Positions 3,671-5,006 of a DNA stretch of 6,468 nt are shown piece after piece. The stretch is from the IMG/VR virus record IMGVR_UViG_2703719355_000007; one strand, 5' to 3'. This DNA is from a virus (lineage: Duplodnaviria; Heunggongvirae; Uroviricota; Caudoviricetes). The notes below the pieces were generated by a model. That model was not told the origin of the DNA. It saw only the letters and a list, made by a program, of their open reading frames with translations, and ran no database searches. How positions within the stretch are numbered: the first letter of the stretch is position 1; each line of letters starts with the position of its first letter. The position numbers and the translations under genes were made by a program.

Positions 3671-3862
3671 TGTGATTTTTTCTTTAGTTCATGTATTTCG
3701 ATTTGTTTCTGAATTATCGGGGGTAGTGTCTTCCCTTTTCCCTGAGGCTTATCATGCAGTTATTTTCGCCATCTTGGTATTGTGGAAATACCGACATCCA
3801 TAGCTTTGGTGAGCTCTGTTCAGGTGGCCAAATTCAGAAAACCATTACGGAGGAAGAAGGCG

Positions 3863-4429
3863 ATGGCTAAACCAGCGCGAAGACGATGTAACCGTAAAAG
3901 AGAAGATTTAACTGTTAAAAGGATATTTGAGTTACTAAGTTTCGATAAATCTACCGGGGTATTTAGATGGAAAGTTCCCACTCAGGGAAGGATAGCATTA
4001 AATAGTGTTGCTGGAACTTTTGATTCCAACGGTTATTCAATGATCATGATAGATGGGCGTAGATATAAAACTCACGTCTTAGTTTTTTACATAACTCATA
4101 ATCGTTGGCCTGCTGGTCAAATTGACCACGTTAATGGAATTAGGACCGACAATAGGCCAGAAAATTTAAGAGAATGCCTGCCAATAGAAAATTCAAGAAA
4201 TATAAGGATCCGAAAGAATAGCAAATCAGGTTGCAGAGGGGTTACTTGGCACAAACGACAGAAAAAATGGAATGTTAGGCTAGGATTCCATGGAAAGAGT
4301 AAACACTTCGGATGCTTTGATGATCTGGAGTTAGCGGTACTAGTTGCTGAAGAAGCCCGAGATAAGTATTACGGTGATTTTTCCGGCAACGAAAGGAGCA
4401 CTTATGCGAATCTATCGAAGGAAATGTAA
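3863..4429 (+). CDS. HNH endonuclease with C-terminal AP2-like DNA-binding region (homing-endonuclease-like)
   Basis: HNH_3-type motif [43 protein letters not shown] followed by an AP2-like segment [52 protein letters not shown]. Start preferred at ATG 3863 (GGAGG at 3849-3853) rather than the track start 3782. 3' end overlaps ninG by 26 nt. Confidence 0.75.
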
Positions 4430-5006
4430 ATGTTGCAATGAATGGTTTATACCAAAATATCAAAATCAATATTTGTGTAATGAGATTTGTGGAACCAAGA
4501 TAGCACTCGAACGACGAAGTAAAGAACGCGAAAAAGCGGAAAAAGCAGCAGAGAAGAAACGACGACGAGAGGAGCAGAAACAGAAAGATAAACTTAAGAT
4601 TCAAAAACTCGCCTTAAAGCCCCGCAGTTACTGGATTAAACAAGCCCAACAAGCCGTAAACGCCTTCATCAGAGAAAGAGACCGCGACTTACCATGTATC
4701 TCGTGCGGAACGCTCACGTCTGCTCAGTGGGATGCCGGACATTACCGGACAACTGCTGCGGCACCTCAACTCCGATTTGATGAACGCAATATTCACAAGC
4801 AATGCGTGGTGTGCAACCAGCACAAAAGCGGAAATCTCGTTCCGTATCGCGTCGAACTGATTAGCCGCATCGGGCAGGAAGCAGTAGAGGAAATCGAATC
4901 AAACCATAACCGCTATCGCTGGACTGTCGAAGAGTGCAGGGCCATCAAGGCGGAGTATCAACAGAAACTTAAAAAACTGCGAAACAGCAGAAGTGAGGTT
5001 GCATGA
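4404..5006 (+). CDS. ninG: NinG/Rap-family recombination-associated protein
   Basis: 200-aa product containing [31 protein letters not shown]...[30 protein letters not shown]...[25 protein letters not shown], near-identical to lambda NinG as I recall it. Start at ATG 4404 behind AAAGGAG (4392-4398); the track start 4344 is an upstream extension. Stop overlaps the next ATG. Confidence 0.85.

Follow-up and report, generated by a model that had tools for sequence, protein, structure and literature searches.

The 6,468-nucleotide (nt) stretch of viral DNA analysed here (IMG/VR record IMGVR_UViG_2703719355_000007, referred to below at its full length as the window) is set in the nin region of a lambdoid prophage, and over the pieces searched it is 100% identical to E. 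coli strain 2013C-4991. Within it, the gene ninG overlaps an upstream open reading frame (ORF) that encodes a putative endonuclease with an HNH_3 and an AP2 domain, and genome records label the two ORFs simply “HNH endonuclease” and “recombination protein NinG”. Comparison with loci that lack the HNH gene indicates that these two annotations are the two halves of one insertion event, and that the feature is probably a free-standing homing-endonuclease gene of the HNH-AP2 type that has settled in the 5' end of ninG, a homing element by origin and likely still mobile.

The anatomy of the element (Table 1) was determined by comparison with five HNH-less loci, which comprise phage lambda and four E. 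coli prophages. To the left of the insertion point lies a remnant of the original locus, with a G+C content (GC) of 52%, in which 40 of the 42 nucleotides are identical to the tail of lambda ninF, its stop codon, the ribosome-binding site and the ninG start up to about codon 10 (pairwise expectation value, E, 1e-14), and 41 of the 42 to an E. coli ninG without the HNH gene. The first 10 codons of the native ninG now open the HNH ORF in frame. The original prediction, made without any database search, had noted that the N-terminus of the HNH protein resembles that of lambda NinG and had proposed that the start signals of ninG were captured, and this is borne out by a nucleotide match that includes the ninF stop and the ribosome-binding site. 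The gene itself is also as predicted, but the start proposed for it, position 3849, falls in the ribosome-binding region upstream of the actual ATG.

Alignment with HNH-less ninG shows identity stopping between 3891 and 3892 (...CGATGTAA followed by CCGTAAAAG) and resuming between 4487 and 4488 (...GAGATT followed by TGTGGAACC), with the cassette that lies between these points containing, in order, the body of the HNH gene, a ribosome-binding site, an ATG and 28 substitute ninG codons. The same two junctions are found in every comparison of HNH-bearing with HNH-less loci, be it with lambda, with the four E. coli empty-site loci or with five Salmonella loci, and the identity of the junctions everywhere argues for a single origin. 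The HNH-less relatives have an uninterrupted ninF-ninG and no different gene at this position; among them is a near-twin of the window with an empty site (locus L012), in which the gene order is Dam-ninE-ninF-ninG-phosphatase-Q-tRNAs. The locus is thus polymorphic, filled or empty at one precise site in otherwise homologous DNA, as would be expected of a free-standing homing endonuclease gene.

Table 1. Features of the window, with the parts of the ninG element first and the neighbouring genes after them
Feature	Coordinates	Strand	Remarks
Remnant of original locus	3850-3891	+	last codons and stop of ninF, native ninG ribosome site, ATG 3863, ninG codons 1-10 (MAKPARRRC + AA)
HNH_3 + AP2 endonuclease ORF, 188 aa (amino acids)	3863-4429	+	ATG 3863, TAA 4427-4429
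Imperfect direct repeat, left copy CGAAGACGATGTAA	3878-3891	+	11/14 identical to right copy
Cassette, 596 nt	3892-4487	+	replaces 64 nt of ninG (lambda-type codons 11-32)
Ribosome-binding site AAAGGAG for restarted ninG	4392-4398	+	inside the HNH ORF, 5 nt upstream of ATG 4404
ninG (Rap), 200 aa	4404-5006	+	lambda-type from 4488 onward
Substitute ninG 5' end, codons 1-28	4404-4487	+	AT-rich, 27.4% GC; four Cys of the NinG N-terminal motif kept
Imperfect direct repeat, right copy CGAAGGAAATGTAA	4416-4429	+	holds the HNH stop codon
Dam-type methylase	329-856		followed by ninE in the gene order of the window
AT-rich block, 2.77 kb	1081-3849	.	34% GC; ends 13 nt before the ninG/HNH ATG
590-aa ORF in the AT-rich block	1539-3311	-	block follows ninE
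Ser/Thr phosphatase	5003-5674		3' of ninG
Antiterminator Q	5665-6183
tRNA-Asn (GTT)	6247-6318		directly downstream of the Q antiterminator gene
tRNA-Thr (TGT)	6328-6403		directly downstream of the Q antiterminator gene

The restart of ninG from its own AAAGGAG site with a 26-nt overlap, which had been predicted from the letters of the sequence, is found as described, the two ORFs sharing 4404-4429 in different frames. Codon alignment indicates that the substitute codons are homologous to the NinG N-terminus, with a sequence that is merely loosely similar; the 64 nt of ninG beside the insertion point have in effect been exchanged for a loosely similar version of 24-27% GC. From 4488 to 5006 the gene is 97.1% identical to lambda ninG, and the protein matches the Pfam family NinG (PF05766) with 277 bits, residues 4-194 aligning on profile positions 5-192 of 193. 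Since the substitute codons re-create the four-cysteine motif, a NinG of 200 residues is predicted to be still made.

A partial duplication of the ninG 5' end had also been proposed. What stands of this is short, because only about 9-10 codons occur twice, the R-R-x-C-K codons of NinG being encoded by each copy of the imperfect direct repeat; the second front end is a divergent AT-rich substitute and not a local copy. At 11 of 14 positions the repeat is too short to be significant alone, and it was not picked up by the repeat search. Direct reading of the sequence indicates that an in-frame ninG would remain after removal of 3892-4429. The parts of the locus also differ in composition, with 38.9% GC in the HNH body and 27.4% in the substitute 5' end, compared with 48.7% in the rest of ninG and 51.6% in the lambda segment that was replaced, and this contrast argues that the nuclease gene and the substitute front end of ninG arrived together from a source of lower GC. 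A search for self-splicing RNA gave no Rfam family match in 3300-5100 at E <= 1, and therefore no group I intron was detected; the possibility of an intron or intein was rejected on this ground and because the nuclease ORF stops and ninG restarts in another frame with its own ribosome-binding site and ATG.

Several smaller observations concern this segment. At ninG codon 24 (4473-4475) the window has TTG (Leu), whereas 54 of 60 cassette copies have TGG (Trp), which is also found at this position in lambda NinG and in two aligned Salmonella phage NinG sequences. In the loci of PK8241 (L003, 3550-4763) and Z1323CEC0014 (L008, ~3100-4380), independent IS3-family and IS2 insertions part the nuclease gene from ninG, both of them sitting in the AT-rich stretch formed by the HNH 3' end and the substitute ninG 5' end; the partial matches of these two loci were considered as alternative junctions and rejected once they had been recognized as the IS3 and IS2 insertions.

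The predicted nuclease scores 42.7 bits against the Pfam family HNH_3 (PF13392; cut-off 24.8) over residues 68-107, and it matches PHROG 99, “HNH endonuclease”, at E 1.4e-71. D88, H89, N101 and N110 are invariant when the protein is aligned with 14 homologues (31-42% identity), and to judge from this conservation the D-H...N...N pattern constitutes the catalytic histidine and the metal-binding or structural asparagines of the predicted enzyme. The AlphaFold model (predicted local distance difference test score, pLDDT, 87.8; low confidence at residues 1-10 and 174-188) contains a beta-beta-alpha-metal fold, with strands at 86-89 and 102-105 and a helix at 107-113, followed by an AP2 fold, with strands at 127-130, 135-142 and 145-152 and a helix at 155-173. 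Its top match in the PDB is the homing endonuclease I-HmuI (1U3E), with a Foldseek probability of 1.00 over 109 aligned columns, a match that is nonetheless weak (E 0.012, template-modelling score, TM, ~0.4, 18% identity). Further matches are to plant AP2 domains: across 51 columns the model superposes on that of AtERF1 (1GCC) with a root-mean-square deviation of 1.3 A and a TM, on the target, of 0.67, it also matches the AP2 domains of WRI1 and TEM1, and several homologues of the protein have a precomputed AP2 hit. The HNH-AP2 architecture that had been read from the sequence is thus retained, its HNH_3 part above the Pfam cut-off and its AP2 fold supported by the structure model despite a Pfam score below threshold.

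Homologues of 31-47% identity start 1-6 residues before a conserved LTxxRLxELLxYDPxTGVFRW block, which argues that residues 1-15 of the ninG-associated protein are an extension, the first 10 of them taken from NinG; the core of the family runs from residue ~16 to ~173. The C-terminal tail is read from the region of the ninG restart in the other frame, and its final 8-9 codons overlap the restarted ninG. There is no in-frame ATG, GTG or TTG between codons 1 and 60 of the HNH ORF, and translation of the nuclease therefore depends on the native start signals of ninG. Where relatives occur in phage records, they are encoded by free-standing genes of lytic phages, and a single genome often has several of them. 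An example is the HNH protein of Salmonella phage 64795_sal3, which aligns from residue 1; it was followed up and set aside as the product of an ordinary free-standing gene between primase and helicase, unrelated to ninG. The protein itself belongs to one tight cluster at 90% identity, which holds 464 sequences (E. coli, Salmonella and “Enterobacteriaceae”), and its nearest relative outside this cluster is at most 47% identical.

The cassette was found at full length and at least 95% identity at 571 places in 538 of 5,426 complete E. coli genomes, or about 10%, while lambda-type ninG occurs at 2,438 places in 1,169 complete E. coli genomes. In the phage collection it was present only in the Shiga toxin 1 (Stx1) converting phages AU6Stx1 and SH2026Stx1, and it was also found in five Salmonella prophages, with the gene order ninF-HNH-ninG-ninY/ninH. 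Its surroundings were compared between 109 usable empty-site loci and 60 loci that have the cassette, namely the window, three annotated loci and 56 loci from IMG/VR, a 57th IMG/VR copy (L070) being set aside because of a 1-nt deletion. The left neighbour of the cassette is ninF in 21 of the 60 loci and the AT-rich block in the other 39, a ninH or a phosphatase gene lies to the right, and all four combinations of left and right neighbours occur; the backgrounds include many lambdoid and P22-like prophages of E. coli and Salmonella. Among the IMG/VR matches listed, no isolate was shared between HNH-bearing and HNH-less loci.

The distribution of diversity across these loci separates the cassette sharply from its flanks. 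Nucleotide diversity (pi) is 0.004 in the cassette, whose copies are ~99% identical, and 0.03-0.10 in the DNA next to it. In the 21 loci of the ninF type it amounts to 0.098 in the left flank from -200 to -42 and 0.0015-0.0047 in the cassette; beyond the cassette, the initial 130 nt of ninG have a value of 0.030 and more distant parts of the gene 0.016-0.08. The cassette is 6-20 times less diverse than the DNA within 50-200 nt on either side. The ninG bodies of HNH-bearing and HNH-less loci are equally diverse and undifferentiated (between-group divergence, dxy, ~ pi), and no co-conversion gradient was detected in ninG downstream of the cassette, where background diversity is reached within the first 65-130 nt. 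In the five Salmonella prophages the 596-nt cassette has 4-8 differences and the 519 nt of ninG beside it have 26-45 (4/596 vs 45/519, Fisher p 9e-12), and the Salmonella phage backgrounds that the cassette has entered have a ninG that is 8-9% diverged. The nuclease ORF is intact in all 65 analysed copies, with L070 counted separately; its polymorphisms comprise 14 synonymous and 14 non-synonymous changes, the common ones being synonymous, and this together with the intact ORF suggests purifying selection.

A young, conserved cassette in old, diverse flanks in two genera argues for its repeated transfer into new ninG backgrounds through recombination in the flanking homology. In these comparisons the element appears younger than its flanks and phylogenetically uncoupled from them, as free-standing homing endonuclease genes are, and such a combination of a young cassette, diverse flanks and two host genera is the pattern that would be expected of one. 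Together with the junctions and the protein family, this low divergence, about a tenth of that of the flanks, supports the proposal that a free-standing homing endonuclease gene inserted into ninG and captured its start signals; the activity of the enzyme and the homing itself are conclusions drawn from sequence.

The steps of such a process, inferred in the same way, would be cleavage, a particular target position, immunity of the carrier and an over-transmission driven by the nuclease. On infection, or once a prophage has been induced, the nuclease gene would be transcribed along with the nin genes. If an HNH-less lambdoid phage or prophage were present in the same cell, its ninG would be cut or nicked near the 64-bp stretch that is missing from the cassette-bearing allele, and repair from the cassette-bearing genome would copy the cassette in, using homology to ninF and the ninG start on the left and to ninG from codon 29 on the right. 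The AT-rich substitute segment would protect the carrier allele from cutting, since the recoding plausibly removes the target of the enzyme. A phage of lower GC, with the nuclease gene immediately upstream of its ninG homologue, is the probable source from which the cassette was acquired as a single unit. With the nuclease translated from the start of ninG, and ninG re-initiated from the start that the element supplies, the element could occupy a coding region at low cost.

A number of observations weigh against this interpretation. The AP2 domain (PF00847) has a Pfam score of 22.2 bits over residues 123-171, which is under the cut-off of 33.3 (E 1.8e-4). The donor lineage was not found: a search of 5.8 billion proteins gave no relatives of the nuclease between 47% and 89% identity, and a search of one genome per species (GTDB) gave only a distant relative in Planctomycetota. 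Nor was there an HNH-less ninG with the substitute 5' end, which occurs in the same 538 E. coli genomes only (sensitive blastn included); the closest HNH-less NinG N-termini in phage records (tblastn) are at most 63% identical to the substitute, and a 41-aa search with the substitute NinG N-terminus returned E. coli fragments only. The case for mobility is built entirely from comparison; lambdoid phages recombine freely, a non-homologous block in itself concentrates crossovers at its edges, and ordinary recombination there could give a similar pattern. Much of the abundance of the cassette in E. coli may reflect one lineage inherited vertically in prophages of the enterohaemorrhagic E. coli (EHEC) type, because the right end of the AT-rich block with the 590-aa ORF never adjoins an HNH-less ninG in the 5,426 complete genomes, and 512 of the 538 carriers have both block and cassette. 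Finally, some genomes have more ninG places than cassette places (2 vs 1 in the window's own, 3 vs 1 in UTAK-6), but these unconverted co-resident copies are weak counter-evidence, because the nin genes are repressed in lysogens.

Several of these points would be accommodated if the cassette were a passive module of a mosaic genome, that is, if a single illegitimate recombination had joined an HNH gene and a foreign ninG front end to a lambdoid ninG, and the product had then spread by descent and ordinary homologous exchange with no involvement of the nuclease. The single origin implied by the identical junctions is consistent with such a history, as are the known mosaicism of nin regions, in which all flank combinations occur, the persistence of HNH-less ninG copies in the same genomes, and the association of 512 of the 538 E. 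coli carriers with an AT-rich block never seen beside an empty ninG, which fits one successful prophage lineage. It is nevertheless unlikely, since the ORF is intact in every analysed copy and has an excess of synonymous changes relative to sites, which argues that the protein is used; the cassette is far less diverse than its near flanks and has crossed into Salmonella backgrounds with a strongly diverged ninG; and the protein family is typical of homing endonucleases.

The maintenance of the ORF would also fit a nuclease that has been co-opted, either harming competing lambdoid phages and co-resident prophages (marker exclusion) or aiding NinG in recombination, with its position in ninG a matter of history. 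The use of ninG's own start signals would make such a nuclease co-regulated with the recombination genes, EHEC genomes are polylysogens with several ninG-bearing prophages, and co-option of homing-endonuclease domains in phage conflicts has been described (PMC10448857). This explanation is very improbable, however, because nothing points specifically to co-option, marker exclusion is a normal by-product of homing endonucleases, and homing predicts just such close linkage of a nuclease gene with a recoded segment of its target. That the MAKPARRRC start is merely NinG-like, by chance or through an annotation artefact, and that the HNH gene lies independently upstream of a normal ninG, is refuted by the identity of 40-41 of 42 nt across the ninF stop and ribosome-binding site, by nuclease homologues without these first residues and by HNH-less alleles that run on as ninG from the same point.

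The ninG element can be compared with several known systems. SegE, SegF and SegG of phage T4 carry out intronless homing, in which break repair, relying on homology in neighbouring genes, transfers a free-standing nuclease gene to a relative that lacks it, and in which the carrier allele differs at the target. In the comparative data presented here the ninG element resembles the Seg and Mob genes of T4-type phages in behaviour; Seg and MobE, however, are GIY-YIG or other HNH enzymes of lytic T4-like phages, whereas the ninG element is found in temperate lambdoid and P22-like prophages. In Aeromonas phage Aeh1, MobE splits nrdA, and the gene stays functional as two polypeptides. Unlike nrdA, ninG has lost its first 10 codons only and has been supplied with a substitute N-terminus. 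A second insertion within a gene is that of ShiLan, an actinophage whose DNA methylase gene has received an HNH homing element out of frame (Arsenault et al. 2025, PMC11855218). Like the ninG element it lies inside a phage coding gene with overlapping frames and without an intron or intein, but the ShiLan insertion is read through in frame, adding a loop to the host protein, and its HNH is hidden in another frame, while at ninG the HNH ORF continues the frame of the host start as far as its own stop codon, and the host gene begins anew. These two, MobE in nrdA and ShiLan, are the nearest precedents within genes, from which the ninG case differs in that the nuclease is fused to the first 10 codons of the host gene and the front end of that gene is replaced, not split or looped out.

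The protein has closer counterparts than its position does. The combination of HNH with AP2 is an architecture recognized among homing endonucleases (Magnani et al. 2004, as cited in PMC10448857), and free-standing homing endonuclease genes of this kind occur in phages, cyanobacteria and protists, the “IPA-HNH” genes of Vibrio phage ICP1 among them (Barth et al. 2023, PMC10448857). The ninG nuclease shares with them an N-terminal HNH_3, a C-terminal AP2 and the character of a small free-standing phage gene at which sequence exchange between related phages has a boundary; they are normally intergenic and have their own start, whereas the ninG element lies within coding sequence, uses the host start and first 10 codons, and brings a replacement 5' end. 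I-HmuI, an intron-encoded HNH enzyme of Bacillus phage SPO1 that acts as a monomer with an extended DNA-binding part, has a similar active site of the H-N-N type, but its DNA-binding modules are different and it resides in a group I intron, which is absent at ninG. No paper describing the ninG element was found in a literature search for ninG with HNH or homing.

The ninG cassette is in these respects a clean but not exceptional case of a probable homing endonuclease gene; the kind is known, although the arrangement is unusual. Lambdoid phages are the best genetic system to be had, and in them the cassette offers a clean, datable element of the homing type that the genetics of lambda makes easy to test; it also illustrates how a selfish nuclease gene can occupy a coding sequence cheaply by taking the start signals of its host and bringing a spare front end. 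An active enzyme, if there is one, would be a maker of recombination hotspots among Shiga-toxin and related prophages. A bolder reading, which is possible but doubtful, is that the cassette represents a “self-compensating” homing element of a kind undescribed so far, one that takes over the translation start of its target gene and carries a recoded, cleavage-immune replacement of the essential 5' segment; in polylysogens of EHEC and Salmonella, with their many lambdoid prophages, Shiga-toxin phages included, it would then behave as a gene drive and perhaps also be used against competing ninG alleles as a weapon, and it would shape where those phages recombine.

The remaining features of the window lie outside the cassette. 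Comparison by blastn with the empty-site twin indicates that the AT-rich block upstream stands in place of 101 nt of ninF, which is most of that gene; ninF is intact in other cassette-bearing loci, and the block appears to be a second event, separate from the ninG cassette. Its 590-aa ORF has no Pfam match and belongs to PHROG 9230, of unknown function. A hexanucleotide repeat, (TTTCTA)x6, is located at 3630-3665, ~320 nt upstream of the start of this ORF; related loci have between 3 and 13 copies of the unit, and the tract may therefore be slippage-prone or phase-variable. Upstream of the HNH gene no promoter of its own was detected on the + strand, and a consensus scan gave a weak terminator-like hairpin with a T-run at 3719-3735 (+), between the AT-rich block and the HNH/ninG start. 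The arrangement of tRNA-Asn and tRNA-Thr behind Q recurs in the related loci L004 and L012. Salmonella prophages with the ninG cassette contain further free-standing HNH_3+AP2 or NUMOD4+HNH_3 genes (L198, 5076-5567; L199, 567-1154; L197, 5471-5989), which lie either in the interval from Q to the lysis genes or upstream of ninB, and it therefore seems that several elements of this sort are harboured by lambdoid and P22-like prophages.

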